Positions 7,696 through 61,403 of a DNA stretch of 64,000 bases are shown in pieces (within the stretch, counting starts at the first letter, position 1; every line of letters starts with the position of its first letter). A program made the position numbers and the translations under genes. This DNA comes from Staphylococcus phage Machias: sequence record MW349128.1. One strand, 5' to 3'. The notes beneath the pieces were generated by a model that was given only the letters and a program-made list of their open reading frames with translations, had not been told where the DNA came from and searched no databases.

Positions 7696-7736
7696 AATAA
7701 TTGAATAATGGTTTATTACAAATCATTATTCAATTA
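7696..7736 (+). terminator. terminator-like hairpin (AATAATTGAATAATG...CATTATTCAATTAT)
   Basis: 14-bp inverted repeat directly after the stop of the 5204..7687 ORF. Confidence 0.4.
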
Positions 7737-7747
7737 TATATTATAAA
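7735..7747 (+). promoter_or_regulatory. early-type promoter-like motif TATATATTATAAA
   Basis: Member of the recurring TTTAAATATATATTATAAAA family; 47 nt upstream of the 7794 start. Confidence 0.4.
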
Positions 7748-7793
7748 CATGTAACAATATTTGATTTATTTATACTTAAGGAGAGATTAGGAT

Positions 7794-9710
7794 ATGAGTG
7801 AAGAAAAGTTAGTTTTGGATTTAAAATTGGGTAAATATAATAATTATTTACATTCAGATAATTATTATGAAATAATAGAAGAATTAAAGCAGGATATTAT
7901 TAATAACCCTAAAGATAGAATGAATGACTATTTTGAAGATAATATTTCTAAAAGTAATTATTTAACATTATTAATTTTAGGAAAACCTTTTAGAGAAATG
8001 AATAAGAAATTTACAGAAGAGTATTTAGTTAATCCAACTAATATTAATGAATACTATGATTATTTTGATAAAATTGTAGTGAACTTTATTAAAGAAGGAC
8101 ATGATCCTATTAAAATCAGTCAATCAATAGCTTATATCATTGATGAACTTACTATATTCTCAAATGAATATATTCTTCCTGTAGATGGACCTTCTATATC
8201 TTTATATGATATTATGAGATTAGCTAATGAAGATAAAGAAATTGAAAGATTAATTAATTTTGATAATGATGATATTGATCCTAATTTAACTTATCAACAA
8301 ATTATTAATGAAGTTCAAAAACCTAATATGGATAATCTTATTAAACATATTAAGATGGATAAAGAAAATGATTATAAAACTTTCTTAGAGTCAGGAACAG
8401 GTATAAATAAAATACAATTGAATGAGGTATTAAGTTTTGTAGGATTTAAACCTGATATTCGTGGAGATGTTGTTACTGATATTATTGATACTTCATTTAT
8501 GCGTGGATTAAAGAATACAACTCAATTTGCTATTGATGCAGAATCTTCTTTAAATGCATTAATGAACTCTAAGAATAAAGTTAGAGAATCAGGATACTTA
8601 AACCGTAAGATTACATTATTAACTTCAGATTTAAAACTATCAGATAATCATGATTGTGGTAGTAAGCATTTACTTTACTTTAATGTAGATAGTCAAGAAA
8701 AACTAGATCGTATTAATGATAGATATTATTATGATGATAACGATCAAGAATTTAAATTAATTGATAGTAGAAATGATGTTCATTTAATAGGGCAAATTGT
8801 ACCATTAAGATCTCCTATAACATGTGCTGAACCAAATGGTAAAATATGTCAAATGTGTTATGGAAGAAGACTATATGATATTAATAGAAATTTAGCAGTA
8901 GGTATCATAGCTACATTACAGTTAACAGAACCTATGACACAGAAATTACTTTCAACAAAGCATCTTCAAGCTGTTCAACTTTCTGAATTCTCATGGTCAG
9001 ATATATTTAATGAACACTTTGAATTCTCTGGTGATAATATTATTCCTCGTGATGAGAAAACTAAAGTTATTATAGATGATATGATTATTAATGAAGATAT
9101 TGATTATGGAAAATATAAAGCTAAATCATTTAAATTTAAAATAGGTACTAAAGTACATGAAGTTAAATCACCTGTTATTCTTAGAATACCGGATCAGAAA
9201 TTTGATTCAATTGAAAAATTCTACAATGAAGATGAAAATGCTTATGTATTTAATATGAAAGATTTAGGAGAGAATTTCTTATTTAATATTAAAATTAAAA
9301 ATGAAGGTGTCGCAGATCCACTTCTAAAAATTCGTTCTATATTAGAAAGAAGTAATTTTATTAAGAATGATTATGAAGAAAAAGATTATCAAAGAATGTT
9401 TAATGATGTAATGGATCTATTATTAAAATCAGGTACAGATGTTATGTCAGTTCATGTTGAGACTATTATTCGTAATATGGTATTCTTAAATGATACTATA
9501 TATAAAGATAGAGTGAAATATAAAGATCCTGACTTTAATCCTAAAATTACTTTACGTAATGTAGGTAACTCTATATTAAATTCACCTTCACCAGTACATT
9601 CATTGATATTTGAAAATGTTCGTGCTCAGCTTACTACAGATGAAACTAATGGATTCTTCAGTAAAGATGATGAATCTATGTTCGATCCGTTATTTGATTT
9701 TGATATTTAA
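7794..9710 (+). CDS. multisubunit RNA polymerase beta-prime C-terminal-like subunit (unsplit copy)
   Basis: RSPITCAEPNGKICQMCYGRRLYDINRNLAVGIIATLQLTEPMTQKLLSTKHLQAV aligns by eye with bacterial beta-prime region G ([23 protein letters not shown]...[26 protein letters not shown]). Confidence 0.75.
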   Translation: MSEEKLVLDLKLGKYNNYLHSDNYYEIIEELKQDIINNPKDRMNDYFEDNISKSNYLTLLILGKPFREMNKKFTEEYLVNPTNINEYYDYFDKIVVNFIKEGHDPIKISQSIAYIIDELTIFSNEYILPVDGPSISLYDIMRLANEDKEIERLINFDNDDIDPNLTYQQIINEVQKPNMDNLIKHIKMDKENDYKTFLESGTGINKIQLNEVLSFVGFKPDIRGDVVTDIIDTSFMRGLKNTTQFAIDAESSLNALMNSKNKVRESGYLNRKITLLTSDLKLSDNHDCGSKHLLYFNVDSQEKLDRINDRYYYDDNDQEFKLIDSRNDVHLIGQIVPLRSPITCAEPNGKICQMCYGRRLYDINRNLAVGIIATLQLTEPMTQKLLSTKHLQAVQLSEFSWSDIFNEHFEFSGDNIIPRDEKTKVIIDDMIINEDIDYGKYKAKSFKFKIGTKVHEVKSPVILRIPDQKFDSIEKFYNEDENAYVFNMKDLGENFLFNIKIKNEGVADPLLKIRSILERSNFIKNDYEEKDYQRMFNDVMDLLLKSGTDVMSVHVETIIRNMVFLNDTIYKDRVKYKDPDFNPKITLRNVGNSILNSPSPVHSLIFENVRAQLTTDETNGFFSKDDESMFDPLFDFDI

Positions 9711-9721: not shown

Positions 9722-9751
9722 ACCAAACTCTAATTAACTTTAGAGTTTGGT
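9722..9751 (+). terminator. rho-independent terminator (ACCAAACTCTAA/TTAGAGTTTGGT)
   Basis: 12-bp perfect stem followed by a T/A-rich run; overlaps a TATATTATATAAAA promoter-like motif at 9751..9764. Confidence 0.5.
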
Positions 9752-9786
9752 ATATTATATAAAAATTACTAAGGAGGAATTTAAGT

Positions 9787-10616: not shown

Positions 10617-12173
10617 TTGAAAATTATGGTAGTTTTAAATAAAACAAGAAAAATAAAAGTGTCGGTTTATCCGACACGAATTCTTGTTGAAAATTATGAA
10701 CTAGGATATTGTTCAGCAATAGAGAAATATCTATCTGTATGGGATAAAATATACTTTAAACATACGTATAAAGCTTTCGTATATAATGAAGAAGAGAAAA
10801 CTATATCGTTTCCTGCTGGAATAAATATGAAGATACTAATTCAGTCATTACAAAATCATGGAGAAGTAGATTTTCAAGATTTTAGAAAAGTAGACAATTT
10901 ATATTTTAAACCTAAAAAGAATTATGATGTAGAAATGAATTTTAAACCAAGAGATTTATTACAAAAGAAATCTATTGAATTCTTAAACGCTTTTAGTATA
11001 TATGAAGCTTCAACTCAGAAATTTTTATCACTTAAAACTGGTGAAGGTAAAACTTTTTGTGCTTTAAAAAGTGTTATTGATCGTCAGTTAGTTCCTATGA
11101 TATTTGTCAATAATAATAAACTTAAAGAACAATGGTTTGATAAGATTAAAGAATATACCAATATTGATGATGAAAGAATATATATTATTCAAGGTAAATC
11201 AAGTATTAATAAATTATTTAAAATGAAGTCTGATGAACGTAATAAAATAGATTTCTATATAGTTATGTATAAGACATTAAATTCATTTATAGAAGACGAC
11301 ATTGAAAAACTACAAGAACTAATATTTAAAACTAAAGTATCTATTAAGATATTTGATGAAGCACATTTAGACTTTAGAAGTTTAACAAATATAGATATAC
11401 AAACAGATTTACCGTCTATATATCTCTCTGCAACTCCTGAAAGATCTGATAAATCAGAGAACTTTGTATTTAATAATATATTCTTAAATGTTCCTATATT
11501 TAGATCTGACAATTATGATAAACAAATAGCTTCTAATAGAAAGATACCATCTAAATATCATGATGTGTTCATTATACGCTACAATAGTGAACCTAGTGAA
11601 ACAGAGCTAGCAGATTTTGTTTCAGCATCAAGAAGAAATGGTCTTAATGTAAATCATTACAGTAAATATCTTATAGATAAAGATGAGAGAAAAGATAAAT
11701 ATTTTGATATGATATTTAATATCATTAATGAAGTTATTATGAAAAAAGAAATAAGAAAAACTGTCGTTATGTTTAAATTGAAAAATATGATAGATGAGTT
11801 TTATTACTATTTAGAAGAAAAATTAGGTAAAGAAGGATTAGAATTTCTAAACTGTATTCGCTACTATGATGGAATTGATAAAGAAGAAAAATCTAAAGTA
11901 TTAGAATCTAATCTAATAATTACTACAGATTTATCTTTAGGAACAGGTATAGACATACCTGATCTCAAAGCTGTCATTAATACAGTTCCATTATCTTCTG
12001 AAAGTAAAGTTATACAGATAATGGGAAGATTACGCTATATTGAAAATGAAAAATTGATGTATTTTGATTTTGTCGATCATGGTTTTAAAAAACTAGTAAC
12101 GCAAGCTAATAATAGATTAAAAAATGTATTTAAGAAAAAAGCTTTAAACGTTACTGATTTTAAGTTAAAATAA
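10617..12173 (+). CDS. SF2 DEAD/DEAH-box helicase
   Basis: Motif I LKTGEGKTF, motif II IFDEAHL, motif III SATPER, motif VI QIMGRLRY. The alternative ATG at 10626 is equally plausible. Confidence 0.7.
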   Translation: MKIMVVLNKTRKIKVSVYPTRILVENYELGYCSAIEKYLSVWDKIYFKHTYKAFVYNEEEKTISFPAGINMKILIQSLQNHGEVDFQDFRKVDNLYFKPKKNYDVEMNFKPRDLLQKKSIEFLNAFSIYEASTQKFLSLKTGEGKTFCALKSVIDRQLVPMIFVNNNKLKEQWFDKIKEYTNIDDERIYIIQGKSSINKLFKMKSDERNKIDFYIVMYKTLNSFIEDDIEKLQELIFKTKVSIKIFDEAHLDFRSLTNIDIQTDLPSIYLSATPERSDKSENFVFNNIFLNVPIFRSDNYDKQIASNRKIPSKYHDVFIIRYNSEPSETELADFVSASRRNGLNVNHYSKYLIDKDERKDKYFDMIFNIINEVIMKKEIRKTVVMFKLKNMIDEFYYYLEEKLGKEGLEFLNCIRYYDGIDKEEKSKVLESNLIITTDLSLGTGIDIPDLKAVINTVPLSSESKVIQIMGRLRYIENEKLMYFDFVDHGFKKLVTQANNRLKNVFKKKALNVTDFKLK

Positions 12174-12193
12174 AGAAAGGTAGTTGAGGTATT

Positions 12194-12907
12194 GTGACAC
12201 GTATATCTCGTAAAGAGGCAATTGATAATTATCAATACCTCAACGAATTATTTATAAATGTAAGAAGAGATATTAATAAATTTCTATCAGATGAGATATT
12301 TAAAATTAATCATACTAGTTTTAAATCATCTATTATTAAAAATATTAAATCTAATTTTGATATAGTTGAAAATAAGAATAATATATCCCTTTTAATCTTA
12401 AACAAATTTATTGAATTTGATATTTACGAAGGTATTATATTCTTATATGACTTAGAAGAGAATATTGAATTTTTAAAAGAATCAATTAATAATCAAATAA
12501 ATATATTAGAAAATAAAATAGACACTAGAAAAAATACTATCGAAATTATGAATAGAAATAATAAAAAATATAATAGAGAATTAGAAGATAAGAATAATGA
12601 ATTAATTGAAAAAATTAAACTAGGTTCTTTATCTAATGCATTATTAAATCTAGTAGGTATGGATAATTCATTTAAAATTAAAAAAGAAATAAATGAATTA
12701 AAAGAGAGAATCTATAGTAATGAAGAGTTATTAGATAAGAATAATAAAGAATTAAACTCACTTCAAAAAGAAAAAGATACAATTAGTAAATATGACTTCA
12801 GATTTGCTAATAAAGATTTCATTATCAATAAGATAAATGGTTTCTTACAGTATTTTAGAAATGAATATGGTTTTGAATTTTACATTAAATATGAAGGTAG
12901 GTTATAA
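12194..12907 (+). CDS. hypothetical coiled-coil protein (237 aa), GTG start
   Basis: Heptad-rich K/E/N sequence; no enzymatic motifs. Confidence 0.45.
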   Translation: MTRISRKEAIDNYQYLNELFINVRRDINKFLSDEIFKINHTSFKSSIIKNIKSNFDIVENKNNISLLILNKFIEFDIYEGIIFLYDLEENIEFLKESINNQINILENKIDTRKNTIEIMNRNNKKYNRELEDKNNELIEKIKLGSLSNALLNLVGMDNSFKIKKEINELKERIYSNEELLDKNNKELNSLQKEKDTISKYDFRFANKDFIINKINGFLQYFRNEYGFEFYIKYEGRL

Positions 12908-12909
12908 GA

Positions 12910-13515
12910 TTGATAGAATTTGAAGAAAAATTGCCAGCGTTAAATATAATAGTTTCTGCAGTAACTACTTCACCTAAAACTAATACTGAATTTATCAATA
13001 TGACATTTATGGTAGATAGTCCTAAATTTAAAGACTTGTATTTAGAATTCTCAGATATAGATCTAAATGAAGTATTTAAAAATGAAATGCTTAAGGATGC
13101 ATATGAAAAAGGTCAATTGTCTGAATATACTAAGATTGATAAAACGTTAGATGATTATAACTTGAGATTAATTAAAGATGATACAGTTATTCAAGTTCAA
13201 CGTATTAGAGATTATTTTGAAGGTCTTTCTGAATATGCAGATAAATTAGTTTTCTGGATAGATGAAATAACTTTATGGAGTCAATTAATTGAATTGGTAT
13301 ACGGTGGATCTTCAGATAACACTTATGAATTTCCTTCATATATTGATTTCCAACCTATTGATGTGAAATCAGTAGTAAGAATGTCTAGTATTAAAGATGG
13401 TGATTATTCTTATGCAGAAGAATTAATGGGAACAAATGAATCTATGACTGATTCCTCATTATCAATTGCATCATTATTATTGTCATTCATTAAGAAAGCA
13501 AAAATTTTAGATTAA
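12910..13515 (+). CDS. hypothetical protein (201 aa)
   Basis: Translationally coupled to the upstream ORF; no motifs. Confidence 0.45.
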   Translation: MIEFEEKLPALNIIVSAVTTSPKTNTEFINMTFMVDSPKFKDLYLEFSDIDLNEVFKNEMLKDAYEKGQLSEYTKIDKTLDDYNLRLIKDDTVIQVQRIRDYFEGLSEYADKLVFWIDEITLWSQLIELVYGGSSDNTYEFPSYIDFQPIDVKSVVRMSSIKDGDYSYAEELMGTNESMTDSSLSIASLLLSFIKKAKILD

Positions 13516-13517
13516 AA

Positions 13518-13540
13518 ATTTAAATATATATTATATAAAA
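13518..13540 (+). promoter_or_regulatory. early-type promoter-like motif TTTAAATATATATTATATAAAA
   Basis: Best copy of the recurring 20-mer family; 41 nt upstream of the 13581 start. Confidence 0.45.
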
Positions 13541-13580
13541 GTAGTAATACAAAAATTATTTTATTAGGAGAGATTTTATT

Positions 13581-14786
13581 ATGTTAACAAATTTCAAAGA
13601 CCATCTATACCGAGGACAAAATGTTTCAGTTTCAATTTACACACTATTTGCTAGAAAGAATAAAAACACTGGTAATGCTATTAATGGTGAATATATCAAT
13701 ACTTATAAATCAAGTCAATATAACAATATTCCATTTTTAAGTGAAATTGAAAATAACGGTAATCATTATATTTCATTCTCTTACAGTAAATTTCAACAAG
13801 GTCAAGCACCTATCTCAGAGGATGTATTAATTAGTTATCCACATTTACAAGAATTTAATAATTTCTTAAAAGCTACTTACAAGAGTATTGGTGAAAACTT
13901 TAATAGTATTTTCCAAAATAATCAAGTAACTGCTGAGTATCAAAATCATATTTGGCAATCACCTAGTTTAGTTTCAGGTAAAGGTATTGCTTTCGCTCCA
14001 ACTACAATTGTTAATAAACGTACTAATTCAACTGAAATTGGTTTTGCTATTATTGTAAATGATAATAATAAATATGATTTCATTTCAGCAAATGCTTTTA
14101 TTAGTTTAGTTAATTTATTAGTTAGAATTACTAATGATCCTTTAACATTTAGAAATCAATGTGTACAAGCTGAAATGCAAGCTAAAGAAATTGAGAATAA
14201 TCAATTACTTAAAGGATTATTAAGAGCACAAGGTTTACCAACTGATATGTCTAATCACCATATGGATGAGAAAGCTTCATACAATAATGCTCCAAGACAA
14301 CAAAATAACTCAGGTGGATTTAATCAACAAAATAATGGTTTTGGAAATTTCGGTAACAATAATGGAGGATTCAATCAACAACAGAATAATGCTCCTCAAC
14401 AATCAAATAACCAATTTGGTAATTTTAATCAACCTCAACAACAGCAACAATCAAATCCAAATCCTTTCGGTAATGTAAATAATACACCACAAAATCAACA
14501 ACAAAGTACTCCGGAAAATCCTTTTGGTGCAGTGGATAATATTTCTGATGACGATTTACCTTTTGCTGATAAAACAGAAACTAACAATCAACAAGATGAT
14601 AGACAAATTGATAAATCTACAATGTTTAAAGATGCAGATGTTAATAAAGAATCTGGATCTATGGAAGACTTATCAAATAATGTAAATGAAGAAAATGGTG
14701 AAGATCAAGGTAGATCACAATCATTATTAGATAAATTTACAAGTAAAAGTAAAGAATTAGATAAAGATGACGATTTAGGAATTTAA
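13581..14786 (+). CDS. hypothetical protein with Q/N/G-rich prion-like linker and SSB-like acidic DDDLPF motif
   Basis: About 230 aa of ordered N-terminus, then NNSGGFNQQNNGFGNFGNNNGGFNQQQNNAPQQSNNQFGNFNQPQQQQQSNPNPFGN, then ISDDDLPFADK, with C-terminal ...DKDDDLGI. Confidence 0.5.
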   Translation: MLTNFKDHLYRGQNVSVSIYTLFARKNKNTGNAINGEYINTYKSSQYNNIPFLSEIENNGNHYISFSYSKFQQGQAPISEDVLISYPHLQEFNNFLKATYKSIGENFNSIFQNNQVTAEYQNHIWQSPSLVSGKGIAFAPTTIVNKRTNSTEIGFAIIVNDNNKYDFISANAFISLVNLLVRITNDPLTFRNQCVQAEMQAKEIENNQLLKGLLRAQGLPTDMSNHHMDEKASYNNAPRQQNNSGGFNQQNNGFGNFGNNNGGFNQQQNNAPQQSNNQFGNFNQPQQQQQSNPNPFGNVNNTPQNQQQSTPENPFGAVDNISDDDLPFADKTETNNQQDDRQIDKSTMFKDADVNKESGSMEDLSNNVNEENGEDQGRSQSLLDKFTSKSKELDKDDDLGI

Positions 14787-14793
14787 TAAATAA

Positions 14794-14823
14794 GGTATAA
14801 TGTGATTAATTTCACATTATACC
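14794..14823 (+). terminator. terminator hairpin GGTATAATGTGA/TCACATTATACC
   Basis: 12-bp perfect inverted repeat plus an AT run. Confidence 0.45.
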
Positions 14824-14866
14824 AATATTATATTTATTTTTTATATACTGTAAGGAGATTATGTAA

Positions 14867-15715
14867 ATGAAAAACAATAGAGACGTTTCAGATGAATTAG
14901 AAAGAATTATATCTAATGTAGACGAAGTTGATGTTAAATCAGTATTTAAAGATGTCAGATATACTGAATTAAATGATGAAATGGAAGATCAAGAAGAGCA
15001 ATCAAATTCTTCAAAATATCATGGTAGTATACAAGGAATTGTTACTAAAGAAGAATATGATAAATTACCTTATTTAGGTAAAAAGGTAATCCAATTTATG
15101 GAAAATATTGTAGGCGATAAAGAAGGAATGACTTTCGAAGAATATTTTGAAAGATATGCTAAAGTATATGGTGAAGGTGAAATCGATTCATTTAAAAACA
15201 CTATGTATAGATTAAAGAGTAGTAAAGTATTTACTATACATTCATTAATTAGTATTTGTGAAGTAATCGGATATAAAGTTTCATTAGTTTCAGAAGAATT
15301 TAAAGATAAAGATGAATTAACTTTATATAATCCTAAAAGAAAAACTAAGACATCTAAATTTTCAGGTAAACTAGGATTTAAATTAATGCCGGATGTTTTA
15401 TATGAAGAATATATATTAGAATTTGTGGATTTCTTAGAAATATTAGGTAATGAAGGTTATACATTTGAAATGTTATTTGGTGAGCTAGAAAAGAATTCAG
15501 ATGAAGTTAATGTAGTAAGTAAATTAAAATCATCTTTAGATAAAATGATCAAACAAGGAAAATTAACTTGGAAGACTATGGAAACAGTCATCAATTCTTT
15601 AGGAATGAATTTAAAAATAGAATTCATTAAAGAAACAATAGATACAGATGAGATAAATAAAATGGATGCAAGTAATAAAATAGAACTTTCTGATGATGAT
15701 ATTATTAGAGGTTAA
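14867..15715 (+). CDS. hypothetical protein (282 aa)
   Basis: RBS TAAGGAGAT; no motifs. Confidence 0.5.
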   Translation: MKNNRDVSDELERIISNVDEVDVKSVFKDVRYTELNDEMEDQEEQSNSSKYHGSIQGIVTKEEYDKLPYLGKKVIQFMENIVGDKEGMTFEEYFERYAKVYGEGEIDSFKNTMYRLKSSKVFTIHSLISICEVIGYKVSLVSEEFKDKDELTLYNPKRKTKTSKFSGKLGFKLMPDVLYEEYILEFVDFLEILGNEGYTFEMLFGELEKNSDEVNVVSKLKSSLDKMIKQGKLTWKTMETVINSLGMNLKIEFIKETIDTDEINKMDASNKIELSDDDIIRG

Positions 15716-15723
15716 AAATATAA

Positions 15724-15755
15724 TCCCCAATACCTATTAATTTAGGTATTGGGGA
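15724..15755. terminator. bidirectional terminator, conserved hairpin family (TCCCCAATACCT...AGGTATTGGGGA)
   Basis: Between convergent genes (15715 end on plus, 15773 end on minus); T-runs on both sides. Confidence 0.6.
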
Positions 15756-15772
15756 AATTTTATTATTTTTTT

Positions 15773-17692
15773 TTATTCTAAAGATCCTTCATCAGTTGAC
15801 TCTGGAGATTCTTCTACTTGTGATGTAGAAATATTAACATTAATATCTTTACTTACACTATCAGAAACAACTTTAACTTTAGAAGTTCCTTCAGCTTTAG
15901 CAGTTACAAGACCGTTATTGTCAACTGAAGCAAATTCAGATCCTTCAGTAATAGAGTAACTTACAGGGTTTCCTTTAGGATCTGTAGTTACTGTTAATTG
16001 TTGAGTTTCATTATCTTTCATATCAACACTATCAGGAGTAACTGTTAGACTTTTAGTCTTTACTCTAGTTACATTAACGCTAACTGTCTTACTTACACTA
16101 TCAGAAACAACCTTAACTTTAGCAGTTCCTACAGCTTTAGCAGTTACAAGACCACTACTATTAACTGAAGCAAATTCAGATCCTTCAGTAATAGAATAGT
16201 TTACAGGGTTTCCTTTAGGATCTGTAGTTACTGTTAATTTTTGAGTTGATTCTGCATCTATGTTAATTGTTTGTGGATTAACATTTATGCTTTTAGTCTT
16301 TACTCTAGTTACATTAACATTAACTGTCTTACTAATAGAATCAGAACTTACTTTAATTTTAGCAGTTCCTACAGCTTTAGCAGTTACAAGACCGTTATTG
16401 TCAACTGAAACGTATTCAGAGCCTTCAGTAATAGAATAATTTACAGTATTTGTAGATGGTTGAATTTTAACGTCTAACTGTTGATATGATTCTGCATCTA
16501 TGTTAACTTCTTCTGGAGTAACAGTTAGACTTTTAGTCTTTAAACGACTTACATTAACCTTTACATCTTTAGAAACATTATCTGATTTAACTGTAACAGT
16601 TGCAGTTCCTTCAGAAATACCAGTAATATTTCCTTTATTATCTAATGAAGCAAATTCAGAACCGTCTTTTAATTCAAAGCTTACTTTTCTTCCTTCAGGT
16701 TCAGTAGTAACTTCTAATTGTTGAGTTCCTTCAGCTTCAATATTAACTGTTTCTGGAGTAACATTTATACTTTTAGTTTGATTAATGCTTTCAAATTTTC
16801 CATCTTTAGGATTATAAACAGAATATTCAAGTTTTTTATCAATTTCTTTTTGTGCAGTTTCTTCACTTAAAATACGTACATTAAAGTTAATGATATTGTC
16901 TTGAATGTTTCTTTCAATAACTTTAACAACTATTTTTCCTTCTTTACTATAGAAGAATAAGCGATTTTTATTACGTTCAAATTTAGCAAAGCTAGTATCA
17001 CTAACTTCAACTGATAATAATTGTAATAAATTCTCTTTACTTATAGGAGTTACTTCTTTAGAATCAAAGTCTTTATATCCTACAATTTTCTCTAAAGGTA
17101 ATACAGATTCTTTATATACATTAATATCTTGTTGTAATTGAACAAGACGACCTGTAATTTTACCATATTCTTTTACTTGAATAAATACTTCATCATGTAC
17201 TCTTTCAAAAAGATCTTTATGACCTTCAGAAATAGCAATGTCATAATTTTCATCTGCATCTTCAGGGAAGTATAATCTTAATTTGTATTCTTCATCAATT
17301 TCAAGATCAGAAGTAGGTATACTTAATATTTCATTTTTAATATCTTTAACATTATGTGTACTTACAACTGTTTTATCAGATAATTTGATTAAATCAAATT
17401 TAAGTAAACCAAATACATCACGAGCATCAACAGGATTTACATAGAAAGGAACATTAATAAATTTATCTTGTTCTCCTTCAGTTTTGAAATAAATAGTACG
17501 TCTATCATATTTAATTTTTCCAGTTTCAGGTAAAGGTGTAACATCAGTAATAGTCCAACCAGCTTGTTTTAAACTAGCTAAATCACTACCAGAAAGAATA
17601 ACATTTTCTCTAGGACCGTATTCTTTATAACCTAAAAATGGAATTATTTTTTCGTCTAATACTTTCACTTTATAAAAGTTAGTAGTTGCCAT
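15773..17692 (-). CDS. virion-type protein with four tandem bacterial Ig-like (Big_2-like) domains
   Basis: Four repeats of about 85 aa, TVTPEEVNIDAESxQQLxVTTxPxxNxVxYSITEGSEFASVxxxGLVTAKAVGTAKxKVxSDSxSKTVxVNVT. Confidence 0.6.
   Translation of the reverse strand: MATTNFYKVKVLDEKIIPFLGYKEYGPRENVILSGSDLASLKQAGWTITDVTPLPETGKIKYDRRTIYFKTEGEQDKFINVPFYVNPVDARDVFGLLKFDLIKLSDKTVVSTHNVKDIKNEILSIPTSDLEIDEEYKLRLYFPEDADENYDIAISEGHKDLFERVHDEVFIQVKEYGKITGRLVQLQQDINVYKESVLPLEKIVGYKDFDSKEVTPISKENLLQLLSVEVSDTSFAKFERNKNRLFFYSKEGKIVVKVIERNIQDNIINFNVRILSEETAQKEIDKKLEYSVYNPKDGKFESINQTKSINVTPETVNIEAEGTQQLEVTTEPEGRKVSFELKDGSEFASLDNKGNITGISEGTATVTVKSDNVSKDVKVNVSRLKTKSLTVTPEEVNIDAESYQQLDVKIQPSTNTVNYSITEGSEYVSVDNNGLVTAKAVGTAKIKVSSDSISKTVNVNVTRVKTKSINVNPQTINIDAESTQKLTVTTDPKGNPVNYSITEGSEFASVNSSGLVTAKAVGTAKVKVVSDSVSKTVSVNVTRVKTKSLTVTPDSVDMKDNETQQLTVTTDPKGNPVSYSITEGSEFASVDNNGLVTAKAEGTSKVKVVSDSVSKDINVNISTSQVEESPESTDEGSLE
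15830..16780. repeat. tandem repeats of about 255 bp (encode the Ig-like repeats)
   Basis: Near-identical stretches, e.g. CTTACTTACACTATCAGAAACAAC(T/C)TTAACTTTAG... recurring with about 255 bp period. Confidence 0.5.
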
Positions 17693-17712
17693 TATCAGTT
17701 AAACTTCCTTTC

Positions 17713-18237
17713 TTATTTTGAGTTTTCTTTTAATAATTCAATTAAATCTTTTTTACGTGCATTATTTGGATATTCAATGCCTTTTGAATCTAATTCATCT
17801 TTAAGTTCAGCAACAGTGAATTCATTTAAATCTTCTTCACTAATTTCTGATTCTTCTTTAGAATTATCTTCTTGAGGTTCATCTACTTTTTCATCAACTG
17901 ACTGTTCTTCATTACTTCCTTCAGAAACTTCGCTCTCTTCTTTGCTTTCTGAAGAGTCGCTTTCCTCATCTTTCTTTGTCTCAACTGTTGTATCATTATT
18001 TTCTTCAACATTGACTTCTTCATTCTTTTCAGCTTTTTCTTCTTTTTTATTATCTTTATCACTAGGATATTCATAATCTTCATCCACTACTGTTACTTGT
18101 AAACCTAAACGTCTATATAAACGAATTTGAGATCCTGTAGCAATAAATGGTTTAACAAAAGGTCCTTTACCTTTACCAGGAACAAATGCTTTTTCATTAA
18201 TAATAATGAAATTATTATCTTCATTGAAATTTAACAT
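17713..18237 (-). CDS. small acidic protein sharing an N-terminal PxKGxGPxxKPF module with the 22034..23188 fiber-like protein
   Basis: N-terminus FVPGKGKGPFVKPFIATGSQIRLYRRL...DEDYEYP matches YIPNKGMGPINKPFYVDKDILKLYDLM...TEYDYVD of the 22034..23188 ORF. Confidence 0.45.
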   Translation of the reverse strand: MLNFNEDNNFIIINEKAFVPGKGKGPFVKPFIATGSQIRLYRRLGLQVTVVDEDYEYPSDKDNKKEEKAEKNEEVNVEENNDTTVETKKDEESDSSESKEESEVSEGSNEEQSVDEKVDEPQEDNSKEESEISEEDLNEFTVAELKDELDSKGIEYPNNARKKDLIELLKENSK

Positions 18238-18287
18238 ATAATTTTCTTTCCTTTCATCTTTATTATTTTATTATATAAAAAAGTTAA

Positions 18288-18312
18288 AAAGGGATTTTAT
18301 AAAAATCCCTTT
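18288..18312 (-). terminator. terminator hairpin AAAGGGATTT/AAATCCCTTT
   Basis: Perfect 10-bp stem; T-run on the minus strand follows the stop of the CHAP hydrolase gene. Confidence 0.5.
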
Positions 18313-18322
18313 AAGAACTTAA

Positions 18323-19120
18323 TTAACTAAATGTACCCCATGCAGCACCAATACGTTGTCCTTTACCATTTGATTTACCAATTGGTACATAAACATATTG
18401 ACCTTTAAAGTTACCTGATACCCAAATATGTCCATCGAAATCTTGAATTTCATCATATTTAATAGTATCACCTTTCTTCATAAATGGACCTTGAGCCCAT
18501 CCAGTCCATGGACCATTTTTACGAGTAATAATTCCTGAAGAAACATTACATGTGAATTTAGCTTTTTCAGTTTTCCATAGAATACCTGCTGAGTTGCGTT
18601 TCCAAGTATTAGTTGTAGACGCTTTCTTAGGAGCTGCTTTCTTAACTACTTTTTTCTTAGGAGCCGCTTTCTTAGGAGTTGCTTTCTTAGTAGCTGTACT
18701 ACCAAAAGCTGGACGAATTACTCCCCAGAAACCTGTATAATCATGAAATACTTTAGCTGCCGGTGAACCGTTACTTCCTGCATTAAACCAGTTTTGGTCA
18801 ACTGAATAGAAGTTATTTAAGTTAGCTGAAGTAATAATACCTGTATGACCATAAACATCATAAGGTGCATAAGCCCAAATAGCAATATCACCAGGTTGAG
18901 GTAAGAATGATGGAGTATTTTTAATTAATTTCCATCCAGCTGGCATTGTGTTGTCTTTAAGATTAATTGCATTACCCCAAGGACGGAAAGAACCACCTGA
19001 GATGTAATTACAGTAACCTATAGTTAAATCCATACACTGAGCTCCATACCAACCATCAAAATCTAGTCTACGACCAATGCGGTTGTTAACCCAATCAAGA
19101 GCTTGAGTTTTTGTTTTCAT
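18323..19120 (-). CDS. peptidoglycan hydrolase, CHAP domain plus C-terminal SH3b (SH3_5) cell-wall binding domain
   Basis: CHAP Cys/His context (GWYGAQCMDL...YGHTGIIT); SH3b-like WKRNSAGILWKTEKAKF...GHIWVSG...YVYVPIG. Confidence 0.75.
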   Translation of the reverse strand: MKTKTQALDWVNNRIGRRLDFDGWYGAQCMDLTIGYCNYISGGSFRPWGNAINLKDNTMPAGWKLIKNTPSFLPQPGDIAIWAYAPYDVYGHTGIITSANLNNFYSVDQNWFNAGSNGSPAAKVFHDYTGFWGVIRPAFGSTATKKATPKKAAPKKKVVKKAAPKKASTTNTWKRNSAGILWKTEKAKFTCNVSSGIITRKNGPWTGWAQGPFMKKGDTIKYDEIQDFDGHIWVSGNFKGQYVYVPIGKSNGKGQRIGAAWGTFS

Positions 19121-19191
19121 ATAGAATTCAAATCCTTTCTTTATTCCATTTTATATATTTATAATAACCTGTTCTTCTATTAAAGAAATAA

Positions 19192-19220
19192 GTCCTAACG
19201 CTCTATATGAACGTTAGGAC
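19192..19220 (-). terminator. terminator hairpin GTCCTAACG/CGTTAGGAC
   Basis: 9-bp perfect stem downstream (minus sense) of the amidase gene stop. Confidence 0.4.
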
Positions 19221-19235
19221 AATTAAATTAATAAA

Positions 19236-20198
19236 TTAACTAAATGTACCCCATGCTGGCCCTACACGTTTACCATTTCCTGTTGATTTACCAACCGGTA
19301 CATAAACATATTGACCTTTAAAGTTACCTGATACCCAAATATAACCATCAAAATCTTGAATTTCATCATATTTAATAGTATCTCCTTTAGCCATAAATGG
19401 ACCTTGCGGCCATCCAGTCCATGGACCACCTTTACGAGTTTTAATACCTACTGAAACACCACATTTAAATGTAGCTTTTTCAGTTTTCCATAGAATACCT
19501 GCAGAATTACGTTTCCAAGTTTTAGAAGTTACAGTTGAAGTTTTAGCTGGTTTAGCTGGAGCTTTCTTAGCAACTTCTTCTTTAGTAGCAACTTTAGTTG
19601 TTTTACTGTCTTTTGCAGTCGAAGTAACACCAGATTTCATATAAGCTAATACTTTTTTATCTACATTAGAAACACTACGAGACATACCGCACGCAGCTAA
19701 TAAGTTACCTGGATCTTGTTTATCTGCCTGAATATCTTGATGTCCAGGCATATTTGTGCTAGCGTTAATCTTATATGTTTTACATAAATAAGCTAATACA
19801 CGACAGTAATTATCAAATGATTTTAATGAACGATTACGGTCTGAGAAGTAACATCCTTCTACACCGATAGCACCGTCATTAGCATCAATACCGTACCAAG
19901 AGTTATCAGTTGGTGTATTGTACATAACATGCCAAGCTTTTTCATCTAAAGGAACACAAATAATGCATTCTTTATCGTCAACAAAGATATGAGCTGATGC
20001 TGTGTAGTTCCAATCGATATTATATGAATTACGATAGTAATCAACATTATTTTGAGCCGTTGTATTCGGGTTTCCTGTGTCATGAGCAACAATAAATTTA
20101 GGTCCGTTAAGCTTATCTCCAGCTCTACGAGTACCTATTGGTAAAAAATCAGTATATACAGGAACACCGTTCCATGTACCGATATGTTTTTTAGCCAT
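19236..20198 (-). CDS. N-acetylmuramoyl-L-alanine amidase (amidase_2/PGRP-like) plus C-terminal SH3b domain
   Basis: N-terminal amidase_2-like H...T...D/H pattern (FIVAHDTGNPNTTAQNNVDYY...MPGHQDIQADKQDPG). C-terminal SH3b is about 85% identical at DNA level to that of the 18323..19120 hydrolase. Confidence 0.75.
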   Translation of the reverse strand: MAKKHIGTWNGVPVYTDFLPIGTRRAGDKLNGPKFIVAHDTGNPNTTAQNNVDYYRNSYNIDWNYTASAHIFVDDKECIICVPLDEKAWHVMYNTPTDNSWYGIDANDGAIGVEGCYFSDRNRSLKSFDNYCRVLAYLCKTYKINASTNMPGHQDIQADKQDPGNLLAACGMSRSVSNVDKKVLAYMKSGVTSTAKDSKTTKVATKEEVAKKAPAKPAKTSTVTSKTWKRNSAGILWKTEKATFKCGVSVGIKTRKGGPWTGWPQGPFMAKGDTIKYDEIQDFDGYIWVSGNFKGQYVYVPVGKSTGNGKRVGPAWGTFS

Positions 20199-25314: not shown

Positions 25315-26583
25315 TTATTTTTTAAATTTAGATTCAATATTATTTTTTATAATAAATAATATGCATGGTAATAATATATAATCTTCCATATCTAATTCAA
25401 ACTTATCATCATAATACTTAAATATTTTATCAAGAATTTTTTCATCAATATTATCTTTTTGTAAATAAAGTACAATTAATTTATAACGTTCATCAAGATC
25501 AGTTAAACTATTTACACCTTGATAATCTTCATTAATTCTATTAATCTTACTTATATTAGATAATTCGGTGAAATCATTCATATCATTTAATATTTTTGTA
25601 TCATGAAGAACTTTATTCATAAAGTTAATCTCCAAATATTTCTCTCTAAACATCTTTAAAAAGTTATCTTTAGTTTCATTTAAAGTTATTATATTAGGTA
25701 ATTCTTTTCTATCTTTCAATCTTTCATATAAAGAATATTTATAATTCTTTTGGTTTATTCTTTCATTTTTAGGATTTTTATCTTTATAAGGCATTATGTT
25801 TGATAAGTAGGTACTAGACTTTACTAATAAATTATTATCGTATATAAATCTAGATAAATTTAAATCTATATATTTTATATTTGCTACTGCACTAATTTCA
25901 TCTTCATAATAAATGAATGTATTTAATGAAGAATTATAGAAATTATCAATAATTAACGCAGATATTTCATCGGAGTATTTAATACTATTATTAACTTGAT
26001 AGAAATCTTCTTCTAATATTAATGATTTATTATCTGTACCAATATTAGAAAATACAGTTCTATAAGTATTAGAAACTTGTCTTTCAATATCTTCTGTATT
26101 TACATTAAAATTCTGGTAACTTATTTTATAATATGATGAATTTTCTAATGAACTCATTTCTACATTATTTACTCTATATATTCTACTAGTTGCATTTTCT
26201 TTAGATTGATACTGAAATACAATAAAATCATCTGGAAGAGGTTCAATAGTTCCAGGTAATATTACAGCTTCACTTTCTAAATCTTTTTCAGTTCCCCACT
26301 CTTCATCCCATTCTATAGTAGGATTCATTTCAGTAACAGAATATATAGGAAAATCTTTTAATTTATTATATTTAAGTGGAGAATTATCTCCAACAATTTC
26401 TTCAACATTATCTAATGATCTATCTGAGGTTGAGTTCTCATGATCTTTACTGTAATAAGTAACAAAACTAGGAGCTCCAGCTTGGAATTTACTATACTTT
26501 TCAGTACCTGAAAGATATGAAGATACATAACTATTTACAATATCTTTCGGTTGAAGATCATCATTACTAATAAAATAACCCAT
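25315..26583 (-). CDS. hypothetical protein (422 aa)
   Basis: Long ORF with RBS GTGAGGAAA; no motifs. Confidence 0.5.
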   Translation of the reverse strand: MGYFISNDDLQPKDIVNSYVSSYLSGTEKYSKFQAGAPSFVTYYSKDHENSTSDRSLDNVEEIVGDNSPLKYNKLKDFPIYSVTEMNPTIEWDEEWGTEKDLESEAVILPGTIEPLPDDFIVFQYQSKENATSRIYRVNNVEMSSLENSSYYKISYQNFNVNTEDIERQVSNTYRTVFSNIGTDNKSLILEEDFYQVNNSIKYSDEISALIIDNFYNSSLNTFIYYEDEISAVANIKYIDLNLSRFIYDNNLLVKSSTYLSNIMPYKDKNPKNERINQKNYKYSLYERLKDRKELPNIITLNETKDNFLKMFREKYLEINFMNKVLHDTKILNDMNDFTELSNISKINRINEDYQGVNSLTDLDERYKLIVLYLQKDNIDEKILDKIFKYYDDKFELDMEDYILLPCILFIIKNNIESKFKK

Positions 26584-29458: not shown

Positions 29459-32400
29459 TTAAATCATATCTTTTACTTTACGTTTTAATTCTATTAAAGC
29501 TTTATTTGTGAATAGCATCATATAAATATCAACTGTCATACGAGAGACAATACTTAATGGAGAGAATACAGCTTCGATTTCCTCATCAGGTCTATATTCC
29601 GCATAAGGAGATTCATTTGGAGGAGTTACATCAGCAACTACAGTTTTACAAGCTCCATAGAAACTAATTTTATCTCCAACACTCATATCATCTTCATACT
29701 CAGTGAAGATTTCAATAAGAACTCCATCAACTTTTTCTCCTTTAATTTTCTCTGTATTAATTTTATCAACTGCAGCGATATCTACATCAATACCAGGTAA
29801 AGTTTCTTTATTATTTTTAATTCCAGATTTATACTCTTTATATTTATCATTTGATTTTTTAATGTAATTATTAACTAATTTAGCTAAACTATCAGTCATA
29901 TTTTCAATATCATCATTATAATAAATATTAATCTTTTTAATATTACCTGTATATTTACTTCTAACAGCTCGGTTAGCTATATCTTGAATATCTTGTTCAA
30001 ATTCACTACCAATTTTATCTAATAAAGAACCAATACCTTCTTCATCGAATGAAGTTTCAAATATCATTAAAGGATCTCCTGTACGTACTTTCTGACCTTC
30101 TTTAACTATATATTGAATATTTGTGTTTGATGGAATATTTACTGTTTTCTTCATAGTAACTTTAGTAGACATTGCTTCAGACATACTACTAGAAATAATA
30201 GAACTATCTTCATAAGTCATTTATATTAGCTATTATATTTTTATAATAGATTAGACTATATCAAATTCATTAGTATTAATGAATAATCATATTTAGTCGT
30301 TGAACTCTATAAATGTAGAGATGCTGATTAATTTAATATTTCTCAGCAATTAATAATTTTTTGACATTACATTACTATAATGAAAGGCATTTATAATACC
30401 ATATGAGCTAGCTACAGATACTTTAGATAATTTACCTGAAGTGAATTGAATATCATTATTTTTACCAGATCCAGCAAAGAAATTATTATTTTTAGCAAGT
30501 ATTTGACCTTTATTAAAAGTGTCATCTACATTAAATTGTGGATCAAGTTTATTAGATTGATAAAAACCTGAGTTAGAGTTTTTGGCTAATTTTTCAGATA
30601 TATCAACAATATCTTTTTCACCATTGATATATTCCACTGTCATTAAACCAGTTTTCTCGTTAATTTTTAATACTTTACCATCTTGTTTAGCTTTAAAAGC
30701 AAATGTATCTGATAATTGATAAGCTAAAGATTTATCAACACCAGATCCAACTAATGGTTTACTATTAGTTTTTGTTGGAATTACGTGCTTGGCTTGAGTC
30801 AGATTATCTTAATACACTTTGTTTATTGTGTATTAGTTCTTAATGAACTTCTTTAAAATAAATTAAAGCTGAGACTATATCAAATACCATTTAGGTATAA
30901 TCTTATTTAGTCGTTGAACAATTTGATTGATGCTGATTAATTTAATTATTATTTTCTCAGCAATTAAAGATTTTTCTATTATTATATTACTATAATAAAG
31001 GGCATTCATATACCAGTCATTCCTATACGTGGACTATCTGCATGTTTTGAGCTGAATGGGTTGAGCAATTCTAATGGAGTGTATAGAGATGTATCACTCG
31101 CATCTTTCTTACCGCCATCTGTATAACCTCTAGTGGATTTAATTAGTGAATCATATGAAAGCTGTCTGACCACTCCTCAAATATCTTCAATAATGGGCGT
31201 TAACCATTACCAGTTCTCTTATGAACTTCTTTAGGATTTCCCTAAAAGTTGAGACTATATCAAATACCATCAATTAATGGTATAGTTCTTTTTCCACTCA
31301 CTTGAGTGTACTCTACTTCATCAAATATATCTTTGAAATAATTTTTATTAAAATCAGTGTAATAATCTTTTTCATTTAATATTTTTTTATTTCTTATAAT
31401 GAGTATATTTGATTTTTCGATAGTCGTTGAACTATTTAAAATATCATGAAAGTTATCTAAAAAGAAATTGATATTATTTTTATTTATACGAATTAAAGTT
31501 AAATTATTTTTTAAACAAAAGTCATTTTTTATGTGGTCTTTTAGTGCATTTTCTTTGACATTTTCTAATTTTTGATATTTAGAATTATTTCTATACTTAA
31601 AATGTTGAACCCCATCAAATTCCAAAAGTATATTTTCGTTATTTAATGTAAATAAGAAATCAAATCTAAATCTATTAGTATTTTTAGAATAATAAAAATC
31701 ATTAAAAGACTTTTCTCTTTCATAATTTATATTATTTTCATCAAAGAATTTTCTAATTGATATTTCACCATTAGACTTAATAGCACAAATAGGACATCTG
31801 TGCCCTGCACTTACAAAACTGTTTGCACGCATCTCAAATACTTTACCACACTTATGATGTAATATTTTCATTTTAGTGAATAGATTAGTATATGTTTGTC
31901 CATCAATAAGAGAGTATTCATTTTTGCCTAAATATTCTATTTCTTTTTTAAAACTTTCAATTGTTCTTTTTTTTATATTTAGAACATTTAGGACACTTCT
32001 TATAATATAACAAATTATTTGGAGTGGATTTAAATGTTTCATTGCATAGTGTATGTCTAAAATTTATTTTTATTTTACTCCCTTTATATCTTTCTAAAGG
32101 TATAAACAAATCATAGATATTCTCATTTTTTAAACTATAAATAAAATCTTCATGATTTTTATTTATACCGCCTACACATTTGACACATTTATTTTTTCCT
32201 TCAAACATTTGTTTAGGTTTTCGTTTAAATTTAAAACCACAATTATGTTTTAAATTTATTTCAGTATCATAGTCTACGTATTCTTCATAAAAAATTTCGT
32301 ATTCTTTAAATTTCTCATAATTATCATTTACTTTCTTTTTAAAACTTTCTTTATCAATTTTTCTCACATTATCACCCCAGATTATAATAAAATTATGTTA

Positions 32401-35400: not shown

Positions 35401-35517
35401 TTTATAAATTATTAATTGGTTTTTCTTTTGATCCTTAATATTTTCATCTATAGCTTTAATCTTATATCCTGAAATTGAATAGAATTTTAAATTCTTTAAT
35501 CTATTAAGATACTTCAC
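29459..35517 (-). CDS. multisubunit RNA polymerase beta-like subunit. Proposed exons (minus strand) 35517..32579, 31177..31012, 30799..30398, 30217..29459, interrupted by three group I introns.
   Basis: GTG start with AAAGGA RBS. ...FKGPAGRNNEQSYEPDIRSYSESMQGVLGISTPDSNKV | GVVRQLSY... parallels RpoB GPGGL...[39 protein letters not shown] parallels NPLGVPSRMNIGQ. VDD...AGSGKNNDIQF...ASSYG parallels the C-terminal VDDK...GGQRFGEMEVW..EAYGAAY. The proposed junctions give 4266 nt (1422 codons) in one frame. Confidence 0.65.
30218..30397 (-). mobile_element. ORF-less minimal group I intron (about 180 nt) in the beta-like gene
   Basis: P TTAATTGCTGAGAA, Q AATCAGCATC, R GTTCAACGACTAAATAT, S TTGATATAGTCTAATCT, terminal ...AATATAAATG whose ATG is picked up by the ORF tracker as the start of 29459..30220. 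The 5' end follows ...SSYG ggt. Confidence 0.55.
30800..31011 (-). mobile_element. ORF-less minimal group I intron (about 212 nt) in the beta-like gene
   Basis: 5' end ggt|ATATGAATGCCCTTTATTATAGTAAT is identical to the first intron of the second beta-prime gene. P/Q/R/S elements present. 3' end ...TAATCTG|ACTCAAGCC. Confidence 0.55.
31178..32578 (-). mobile_element. group I intron (about 1.4 kb) in the beta-like gene carrying a frameshifted homing-endonuclease gene
   Basis: 5' part (read on the minus strand from 32578) TTAATTGCTGGGAGATCCTTAGAGCTTAATGAGCTACAACGTAACTGGCAACAGTAAGCGTGATATGCTTAAAAATCATTAAGATTGGACAATCAGCAGC is near-identical to polB intron 2. S-like TTTGATATAGTCTCAACTTT lies at the 3' side. 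Confidence 0.5.
31260..32367 (-). pseudogene. intron-encoded EDxHD-type homing endonuclease split into two overlapping ORFs in different frames (31957..32367 and 31260..32042)
   Basis: The upstream ORF has two Zn modules (HNCGFKF...CVKCV; LCNETF...CPKCS). The downstream ORF has a third module (HHKCGKVF...CPICA) plus RFRFDFLF...LLEFDGVQHF. The frames differ (coordinates mod 3 = 0 versus 2). Confidence 0.45.
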
Positions 35518-35833
35518 TTATTATTCAATTCCTTTCATTTAATAAATTTTATATATGTACTTGTTTTCTTTATCTTTTTTATGTAATTTAAGGAGAAATA
35601 ATTTATTAGATTTTGATATAATCAAAATCTAAATATACCCCCTCTAATATTATATTTTTTATATATTAAAATATTTTATATTTTAATATATTATAATAAT
35701 TATATTATTATATAAATATAATATTCCGGAGGTTTTCAAATTTTTTACGAGATATTTTTATAAATTACAAAAATATAAAATTGATGATAACATTCAAATA
35801 TTACAAATAATATATGAAAGAAGTGAAACTAAA

Positions 35834-37387: not shown

Positions 37388-37434
37388 AAGCGTAATATAT
37401 TGAAATATAAACATATATTATAATAATGAAGAAA

Positions 37435-37504
37435 GTTTATCTAGCTCAGTTGGTAGAGCAATGATTTTCATCATGTGTCCGGGGTTCGATCCCTCGGATA
37501 AGCT
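37435..37504 (+). tRNA. tRNA-like gene with a 4-nt anticodon loop (probable tRNA pseudogene/degenerate tRNA)
   Basis: Acceptor GTTTATC/GATAAGC, D arm GCTC-AGTTGGTA-GAGC, T arm CGGGG-TTCGATC-CCTCG, variable GTGTC. The anticodon stem ATGAT/ATCAT encloses only TTTC. Confidence 0.35.
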
Positions 37505-37857
37505 TTTTTTGGTCTAAAATTCTTATTTATTAAAAAATTTTATTTAAAAATATTAATTAACTATATAGTATAAATCTATAATGATCCTCGTCAAATTATT
37601 ATAGATTTTTTTTTTAGTTTTTGATTTAACTAAAAAATATAATAGATTAAATTCTATTATAACTTACTTTGTCGTTTGTTGTTGCTTTAAAAATGTTCCT
37701 TTGATTTCTTGTTTCTATTTTTAATATGTCATGGTTTTAAATAGAAATCCATACGCCTCCTTACGTATAATTAAAAATGAATAGATATTATTATATATTT
37801 ATTTACTTAAAAGAGTGCATAGATGATAAATGTACTCTTTTATTTTTTTTTTATTAA

Positions 37858-37929
37858 TGCTCTATAATTCAATGGTAGAATGCTTGACTGTTAATCAAGA
37901 GGTTGTTTGTTCGAATCAAACTAGAGCAG
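37858..37929 (+). tRNA. tRNA-Asn (anticodon GTT)
   Basis: Acceptor TGCTCTA/TAGAGCA (7/7), TA at positions 8-9, D arm ATTC-AATGGTA-GAAT, anticodon arm CTTGA-CTGTTAA-TCAAG, variable AGGTT, T arm GTTTG-TTCGAAT-CAAAC, discriminator G. Preceded by a terminator-like hairpin plus T-run. Confidence 0.8.
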
Positions 37930-50943: not shown

Positions 50944-50945
50944 AG

Positions 50946-61401: not shown

Positions 61402-61403
61402 CT

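Follow-up and report, generated by a model that had tools for sequence, protein, structure and literature searches.

Whether the AT-rich 20-mer TTTAAATATATATTATAAAA, which recurs upstream of genes in this phage genome and is represented at the present locus by the copy at 13519-13541, acts as an early promoter for the RNA polymerase carried in the virion (vRNAP), as the original prediction proposed, was examined in the window, i.e. the whole stretch of 64,000 nucleotides. The window belongs to a Staphylococcus jumbo phage of the AR9/S6-like type with about 25% G+C and about 75% A+T. Over bases 12000-20000 its identity to Staphylococcus phage vB_StaM_PB50, on which no paper was found in a literature search, is 97.7%, and that to S6, MarsHill, Madawaska, DC4, PALS_2, LY01 and SA1 is about 81%. 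All of these are AR9/PBS1-like jumbo phages of staphylococci, and each has genes for two multisubunit RNA polymerases, a virion and a non-virion one. The DNA of AR9-like phages contains uracil; the replacement of thymine by uracil was reported for S6 and is presumed for the MarsHill group, and the window contains a dCMP deaminase gene (44601-45155). According to a 2026 review, AR9 stands outside the nucleus-forming Chimalliviridae.

In AR9 the early promoter consensus is AAATATATATTAT-(6N)-G(+1). By dRNA-seq 41 such promoters were located, and they were attributed to the virion RNAP (Lavysh et al., 2017, PMC5312081), an attribution that was itself inferred ('must be'), and AR9 early transcripts accumulate with chloramphenicol present (PMC5312081). 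The AR9 late promoter consensus is AACA-(6N)-TA/G (PMC5312081). For Staphylococcus phage MarsHill a MEME motif with a TATATTAT core was described in 2020 before 29 genes and read as the vRNAP early promoter, whereas a late promoter could not be identified. MarsHill belongs to the same clade as the window phage and has the same motif with the same reading; the passages of that paper used here give a logo and a gene count, and neither assign a +1 nor mention orthology to AR9 start sites or an A-tract further upstream. Because the motif and its interpretation were published for AR9 in 2017 and for MarsHill in 2020, the finding pursued here is correct but already known. The transcriptome of a Staphylococcus jumbo phage was not found in the literature searched.

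Occurrence of the motif and its sites in the window

When up to three mismatches were allowed, the 20-mer matched the window nine times, where 1.7 matches were expected, and in 100 shuffles that preserve dinucleotides this number was never reached. This bears out the claim that a 20-mer of such conservation is not due to chance. The 9-mer TATATTATA occurs 16 times, ten of them intergenic (binomial p = 8.5e-7), while intergenic DNA makes up 10.7% of the window. The spacing to a downstream G separates the intergenic copies from the others: TATATTAT-N6-G is present nine times, eight of which are intergenic, whereas TATATTAT lacking a G at that spacing is present 28 times with just five intergenic occurrences. 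Likewise, a G placed 7 nt after TATTAT, which the original prediction had not drawn upon, accompanies 8 of the 13 intergenic TATATTAT copies and one of the 24 that lie in coding sequence (Fisher p = 2.5e-4).

The window was also scanned with a weight matrix of 25 columns that was trained solely on the 34 early promoters annotated in the AR9 GenBank record. Exactly eight intergenic sites were obtained, with scores of 19.0-25.1 and all co-oriented with the downstream gene; AR9's own promoters reach a median of 21.3 and a maximum of 25.1 under this matrix. In first-order Markov shuffles the maximum score averaged 13.5 and sites above 15 averaged 0.28. Random placement of all eight sites in the intergenic 10.7% has a probability of 1.7e-8. 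Each site shows the complete AR9 architecture, AAATATATATTAT-N6-G(+1), with the G present in 8/8 window sites:

7729-7751, plus strand: predicted early promoter, core AATTATATATTAT at 7732-7744, +1 G at 7751 (matrix match at 7728+, score 20.3)
13519-13541, plus strand: predicted early promoter, the site under study, core AAATATATATTAT at 13522-13534, +1 G at 13541 (13518+, score 21.9)
37406-37428, plus strand: predicted early promoter, missed at first, core AAACATATATTAT at 37409-37421, +1 G at 37428 (37405+, score 23.0)
38602-38624, plus strand: predicted early promoter, core at 38605-38617, +1 G at 38624 (38601+, score 23.4)
41727-41749, plus strand: predicted early promoter, exact copy of the 20-mer, core at 41730-41742, +1 G at 41749 (41726+, score 25.1)
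50919-50941, plus strand: predicted early promoter, core AAATTTATATTAT at 50922-50934, +1 G at 50941 (50918+, score 19.0)
58315-58337, plus strand: predicted early promoter, core AATTATATATTAT at 58318-58330, +1 G at 58337 (58314+, score 20.9)
61380-61402, minus strand: predicted early promoter, core at 61387-61399, +1 G (C on the plus strand) at 61380 (61403-, score 21.8)

The published AR9 consensus is thus present in full, as the original prediction, with its AR9-like core in the motif, had anticipated. Seven of the eight copies originally listed are true full-length copies, although their start coordinates were off by 0-6 nt because some had been given for the core and not for the 20-mer. 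The eighth, at 9751, had to be abandoned: it consists only of the 9-nt core TATATTATA, has no upstream AAATA and no +1 G, and stays below a score of 6 under the AR9 matrix. The supposed copy belongs to a terminator, as the T-rich tail of a 12-bp hairpin (9722-9751) directly after the RNAP beta-prime gene; the hairpin together with the tail ATATTATATAAAAATTACT (9722-9770, plus strand) was rejected as a promoter, with A and not G at +1. The list was not complete either, as the copy at 37406-37428 had been overlooked.

The core carries no or one substitution at all eight sites, and the variants (AATTAT.., AAACAT.., AAATTT..) are also found among AR9's annotated promoters. The predicted promoter of AR9 g057 is silent, and the AR9 authors consider the enzyme sensitive to single deviations (PMC5312081). 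For this reason the sites with a substituted core (7732, 37409, 50922 and 58318) could be weak or inactive.

Other candidates were set aside. The best remaining match of the AR9 matrix in the window (59452-59476, plus strand, score 17.0) lies in coding sequence, within the 3' end of gene 58356-59498 just before a terminator; it was treated as chance because of this position and because the corresponding PB50 gene has no site above 14. Coding sequence also holds the sites at 11469 (minus strand, score 11.2) and 25364-25378 (minus strand, score below 6). Within the divergent, AT-rich stretch 35518-35833, TATATTAT is present twice, both times with neither the G nor the upstream half of the motif; this region carries late-type motifs for both virion RNAP genes.

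Correspondence with AR9 and conservation among phages

The genes behind the sites were compared with AR9 by tblastn of all window ORFs, in combination with the AR9 annotation and AR9 Table S2. Six of the eight sites are orthologous in position to AR9 early promoters whose start sites (TSSs) were mapped by dRNA-seq:

7729-7751, plus strand: AR9 early TSS 127757, before g154
13519-13541, plus strand: AR9 early TSS 133407, heading g159-g161
38602-38624, plus strand: AR9 early TSS 222051, before g265 and after g264 as in the window
41727-41749, plus strand: AR9 early TSS 207106, between the g242 homolog (40936-41628, minus strand) and the RNase H (g241) homolog
50919-50941, plus strand: AR9 early TSS 181724, between the g213 and g214 homologs
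61380-61402, minus strand: AR9 early promoter 195846-195858, between g227 and g226

From the start predicted at 7751 a 43-nt leader runs to the gene for the C-terminal part of the non-virion RNAP beta-prime subunit (7794-9710, AR9 g154 homolog), and from 13541 a 40-nt leader runs to gene 13581-14786 (AR9 g161 homolog). The leader from 38624 has 50 nt and ends at a free-standing homing endonuclease gene (38674-40878, PHROG homing endonuclease match), the product of which is partially similar to AR9 g265, a Hef-like endonuclease. At 41749 the leader is 58 nt long and precedes a gene for a 690-aa protein of unknown function (41807-43879), which is followed by the RNase H and dCMP deaminase genes; this 690-aa gene is additional to what AR9 has behind the corresponding promoter. 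The 58337 start gives a 19-nt leader to gene 58356-59498 (AR9 g220 homolog), whose product shows a weak, sub-threshold similarity (Pfam/PHROG) to the C-terminal part of TubZ. Finally, a 67-nt leader separates 61380 from gene 59568-61313 (minus strand), encoding the non-virion RNAP specificity subunit (AR9 g226 homolog) and annotated in PB50 as 'non-viral RNA polymerase specificity subunit'. Thus, the non-virion beta-prime C-terminal gene, the free-standing homing endonuclease and a non-coding region had rightly been named as served by the motif. The proposed distance of 20-60 nt to the gene applies to six sites, where the predicted +1 is 19-67 nt from the start codon; it does not apply to the 50941 start, which 294 nt separate from a 47-codon ORF and about 730 nt from the large gene that comes next.

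No AR9 counterpart exists for the sites before the g220 homolog and before the tRNA cluster. In AR9 no promoter is annotated for g220 itself, which is located downstream of g226 on the same strand, whereas the g220 homolog in the window has one. The single tRNA of AR9 is late, with no reads at 5 min, whereas the tRNA cluster of the window stands behind an early-type promoter whose predicted +1 (37428) is 6 nt before the first tRNA (37434-37505). This site is present in PB50; in the stretches of MarsHill and SA1 an early-type site was not found at the equivalent position. The cluster (37434-37505, 37858-37929 and 37937-38039) forms a unit of its own, from the 37406 promoter to the terminator at 38555-38584.

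To follow the motif through an entire genome, that of PB50 was assembled, scanned with the AR9 matrix and compared with the PB50 CDS tables. The scores are bimodal, 36 sites reaching at least 17.5 and a single site falling between 14 and 17.5. All 36 sites are intergenic and co-oriented, a few overlapping the last 6 nt of the upstream gene, so the motif is not equally frequent in coding DNA; the G(+1) is present in 36/36. The number of sites per genome is similar in AR9 (34 annotated, 41 mapped). In alignments with MarsHill and SA1, which are about 81% identical, the motif is the longest invariant block of each orthologous intergenic region while the flanks diverge. At 13519-13541 the motif block is invariant between diverging flanks, the 7729-7751 promoter is conserved in both phages and the 41727-41749 promoter is invariant in both. 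In the MarsHill stretches four window sites have a direct counterpart in the syntenic block and one more is found before the g214 homolog. Promoter features are absent from the GenBank records of PB50, MarsHill, SA1, S6, AH12, LY01 and Madawaska in the stretches compared.

The Staphylococcus early promoter consensus is TTTAAATATATATTATAAAAATGA. It has in common with AR9 the 13-nt core, the 6-nt spacing to the initiating G, a preference for T at -1 and A at +2, an A-tract at -31 to -29, and the intergenic, co-oriented placement. The start sites are mapped in AR9 and predicted in the window phage. The Staphylococcus consensus is longer and tighter than that of AR9, with TTT at -22 to -20 and an A-rich spacer, in which positions -6 to -2 are A in 23-32 of the 36 PB50 sites versus 14-21 of 35 in AR9. 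The A-tract, with T-rich positions just upstream, has A at -31, -30 and -29 in 21, 30 and 25 of the 36 PB50 sites and in 27, 28 and 22 of 34 AR9 promoters. It lies outside the matrix by which the sites were selected (p about 4e-7 at -30, in PB50 and in AR9). In the window, position -30 is A at five of the eight sites and T at three; examples of the tract are 7720-7722 and 58306-58308. Under the terms looked for, this upstream element is not mentioned in the text of the AR9 paper (PMC5312081).

The promoter is therefore nearly identical in Bacillus and Staphylococcus phages though their proteins are only 30-50% identical, which indicates that the specificity of the virion RNAP is very stable in this clade. 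Outside the isolated phages, IMG/VR was scanned with AAATATATATTATNNNNNTG. Most of the matches listed are single and are probably chance occurrences in AT-rich contigs. Among the matches listed there are at least four loci with 3-4 strong sites within about 10 kb; they include contigs of about 265 and 287 kb, and one locus has 39% G+C. These multi-site uncultivated contigs suggest that the promoter type is used beyond the isolated Bacillus and Staphylococcus phages.

Polymerase, transcription units and alternative readings

The enzyme presumed to read the early motif is encoded partly in the window itself:

32530-35517, minus strand: virion RNAP beta-subunit gene, AR9 g189 homolog (tblastn against AR9)
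29459-30220, minus strand: further virion RNAP piece (tblastn against AR9; PB50 annotation)
35834-36637 and 36992-37387, plus strand: g264 homolog, virion RNAP (tblastn against AR9)

In PB50, pieces of the virion RNAP genes are annotated as 'viral RNA polymerase beta / beta-prime subunit'. Virions of a relative, phage DC4, were found to contain a vRNAP subunit (PMC10638138). These genes are preceded in the window by late-type AACA-N6-TA motifs and not by the early motif. Such late-type motifs occur within 120 nt upstream of 14 of the 56 window genes against 5.0 expected (Poisson p = 7.5e-4), and the antisense control gave 5. Thirteen of the 14 are located 8-59 nt before the start codon and the remaining one at 107 nt. 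Among the genes concerned are those for subunits of the virion RNAP, for lysin and amidase, and for homologs of virion proteins known from AR9. Loci of this type include:

35518-35833: late-type motifs of both virion RNAP genes
18323-20198, minus strand: late-type motif locus
49873-50862, minus strand: late-type motif locus
51631-51642, plus strand: late-type motif

At the g213, g214, g242 and g264 homologs they agree in position with late start sites that were mapped in AR9. By contrast, none of the seven protein-coding genes behind an early motif has AACA-N6-TA/G within 120 nt upstream.

Terminator-like hairpins are likewise enriched in the window (11 versus 2.0 and 12 versus 2.1 expected), and several flank the predicted early units, among them the following:

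9722-9751: terminator
14794-14823: terminator
38555-38584: terminator
40890-40919: terminator
43919-43949: terminator
51550-51595: terminator
59515-59547: terminator

A terminator stands directly upstream of the 38602-38624 promoter, its stem showing compensatory changes among phages. The bidirectional hairpins at 15724-15755, 45799-45830, 40890-40919 and 38555-38584 have nearly the same stem. Two copies have the stem TCCCCAATACCTA...TAGGTATTGGGGA, closely similar stems are present at other places, and the substitutions across phages are compensatory, which suggests a repeated terminator module.

What the sequence itself establishes is the motif, with the statistics behind it, its intergenic position, the degree to which it is conserved and its positional correspondence to AR9 promoters with mapped starts; the enzyme, the timing and the start site in the window phage we infer: the eight sites are very probably AR9-type early promoters that are read by the virion RNAP. 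In support of this proposal, which had been made from the motif, stand the match to the AR9 matrix, the G(+1) and the orthology, all of them properties of the sequence. The promoter would consist of the AT-rich core AAATATATATTAT from -19 to -7, a 6-nt spacer that is rich in A and closes with T(-1), and a G(+1) that never varies and at which transcription would start. The multisubunit virion RNAP, with its split beta/beta-prime homologs, would be carried in the particle and enter the cell by injection along with the DNA; it would recognise the element and initiate at the G in the first minutes of infection, with no need for newly made protein. The resulting early transcription units are predicted to be short and mostly bounded by intrinsic terminators. 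They would encode two subunits of the non-virion RNAP, i.e. the C-terminal part of beta-prime and the promoter-specificity subunit, together with the homing endonuclease, the g220-like protein, the 690-aa protein ahead of RNase H and dCMP deaminase, the tRNA cluster and a structured RNA. The non-virion RNAP would then read the AACA-N6-TA late promoters before the virion, lysis and virion-RNAP genes.

This scheme resembles that of the phiKZ-like jumbo phages; according to reviews, an early motif of this kind is present in every jumbo phage that encodes an RNAP (PMC7598289). In the phiKZ-like phages, an AT-rich, highly conserved element of about 10 nt centred near -10 lies upstream of early operons as in the window, the injected multisubunit RNAP has no sigma homolog, and the early genes include subunits of the non-virion RNAP, whereas the sequence of the motif varies from phage to phage (PMC7598289).

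The sites could alternatively be promoters for host sigma-A, or dual-use promoters, with TATTAT at -12 to -7 as the -10 element and the T-rich/AAA stretch at -35 to -29 as a degenerate -35 element. The likeness to bacterial sigma-A/sigma-70 promoters consists in an AT-rich element at about -10, a weak T/A-rich signal at -35 to -29 and a compatible spacing: TATTAT resembles TATAAT, and a TTWAAA-like upstream signal is 16 nt away, as is usual for sigma-70. The mean best mismatch to TTGACA is slightly below that of slid controls (2.9 versus 3.3 in PB50, 2.8 versus 3.4 in AR9), and the AR9 authors did not fully exclude a minor role of the host RNAP (PMC5312081). However, only 1 of 36 PB50 sites is within one mismatch of TTGACA (mean 2.94). 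The best -35 of the eight window sites has 1-3 mismatches, a single mismatch being reached at 58315 only, where TTTACA-18-TATTAT provides the one fair sigma-A-like -35 among them. Position -30 is never G or C, which implies that the upstream signal is the A-tract and not TTGACA. Bacterial promoters of this class also differ from the window sites, which have no TTGACA-like -35 but a 13-nt block and an obligatory +1 G, and near-invariance over 13 nt plus this G is far more than a -10 hexamer would give. Over about 43 kb of the window, sigma-70-type matches are not enriched (130 versus 132, 118 versus 137 and 86 versus 94 expected). AR9 progeny is produced with rifampin present (PMC5312081), and phages of Bacillus and of Staphylococcus have retained one and the same element. 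Reading by sigma-A is accordingly held to be improbable.

Still less credence is given to recognition of the motif by a DNA-binding protein of the phage, be it a regulator or a factor for replication or packaging, or to a recombination or mobile-element repeat. A long and nearly invariant intergenic repeat, with homing endonuclease genes frequently nearby, might be expected of either. Against both, all copies point at the downstream gene (8/8 in the window, 36/36 in PB50), a fixed G lies 19-67 nt before a start codon with a Shine-Dalgarno sequence at six window sites, mapped AR9 5' ends coincide with that G, and the copies have no repeat flanks, the motif alone being conserved. Chance recurrence of low-complexity AT-rich sequence, for which a genome of about 75% A+T with short cores like ATATTATA common also in coding sequence would offer the opportunity, is refuted by the motif and matrix statistics (nine versus 1.7 with 0/100 shuffles; eight matrix sites of at least 19 against a null mean of 0.28 for those above 15), by the restriction of all eight sites to the intergenic 10.7% (1.7e-8) and by their conservation across diverged phages, and its probability is considered negligible.

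With the eight sites read as vRNAP early promoters, the result is confidently regarded as a base-precise map of the predicted early regulon in this part of the genome. It leaves the understanding of the system unchanged, and is useful for annotation, for engineering of these transducing phages and for the design of templates in studies of promoters of sigma-less RNAPs; how a sigma-less virion RNAP recognises its promoters is described in a review as still unsolved.

The unit predicted to start at 50941 and further observations

The 50919-50941 promoter is predicted not to drive the downstream virion gene. This gene, the g214 homolog (51672), has a late-type motif of its own, and the early unit ends before that late promoter. 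The unit is composed as follows:

50941-51605, plus strand: predicted early transcript of about 660 nt, ending with terminator 51550-51595 plus a T-run
50941-51234, plus strand: structured leader of about 270-294 nt, fold z-score -4.28
51235-51378, plus strand: 47-codon ORF, poorly conserved
about 51412-51530, plus strand: highly conserved non-coding block
51550-51595, plus strand: 20-bp terminator, stem kept through compensatory changes relative to AH12

In comparison with AH12 the non-coding blocks of the unit are more conserved than the 47-codon ORF, and a promoter is kept at this spot in 6/6 Staphylococcus phages, including AH12, MarsHill, S6, LY01 and Madawaska. In the RNAalifold consensus 20 of 52 pairs show compensatory changes, to which no more than 2-3 independent lineages contribute. 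Rfam, searched with 50860-51700 at E<=1, gave no match. AR9 has a matching layout, with the early TSS 181724, a terminator-like hairpin plus T-run recognisable in the sequence, the late TSS 182012 and a g214 that is expressed late. As blastn detected no significant similarity between the unit and its AR9 counterpart, it is just the layout that the two have in common. The transcript 50941-51605 is a candidate for a new early structured RNA.

A wider reading, which combines this unit with the upstream element, is put forward tentatively and is more doubtful than the assignment of the eight sites: the promoter may be bipartite, with the A-tract at -31 to -29 as a second contact of the virion RNAP, and the 50941 promoter may exist solely for the structured early RNA, in the same layout as in AR9.

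A degenerate early-type motif was observed within the span of the virion RNAP beta gene, at 29910-29934 in the window (minus strand, score 10.9), at 29491-29515 in SA1 (minus strand, 18.5) and at 31178-31202 in MarsHill (minus strand, 13.9). The situation is reminiscent of AR9, in which the homologous late gene g189 has an intron that contains the early g190 together with an early promoter.

In PB50 (OR770614.1) an early motif was noticed at 153500-153524 (minus strand); the gene for the reverse transcriptase (150938-152491, minus strand) lies about 1 kb downstream of it, and the gap between the two contains no annotated gene. The interval 152492-153588 is a candidate for the non-coding RNA partner of the retron-like reverse transcriptase that is noted in the MarsHill paper.
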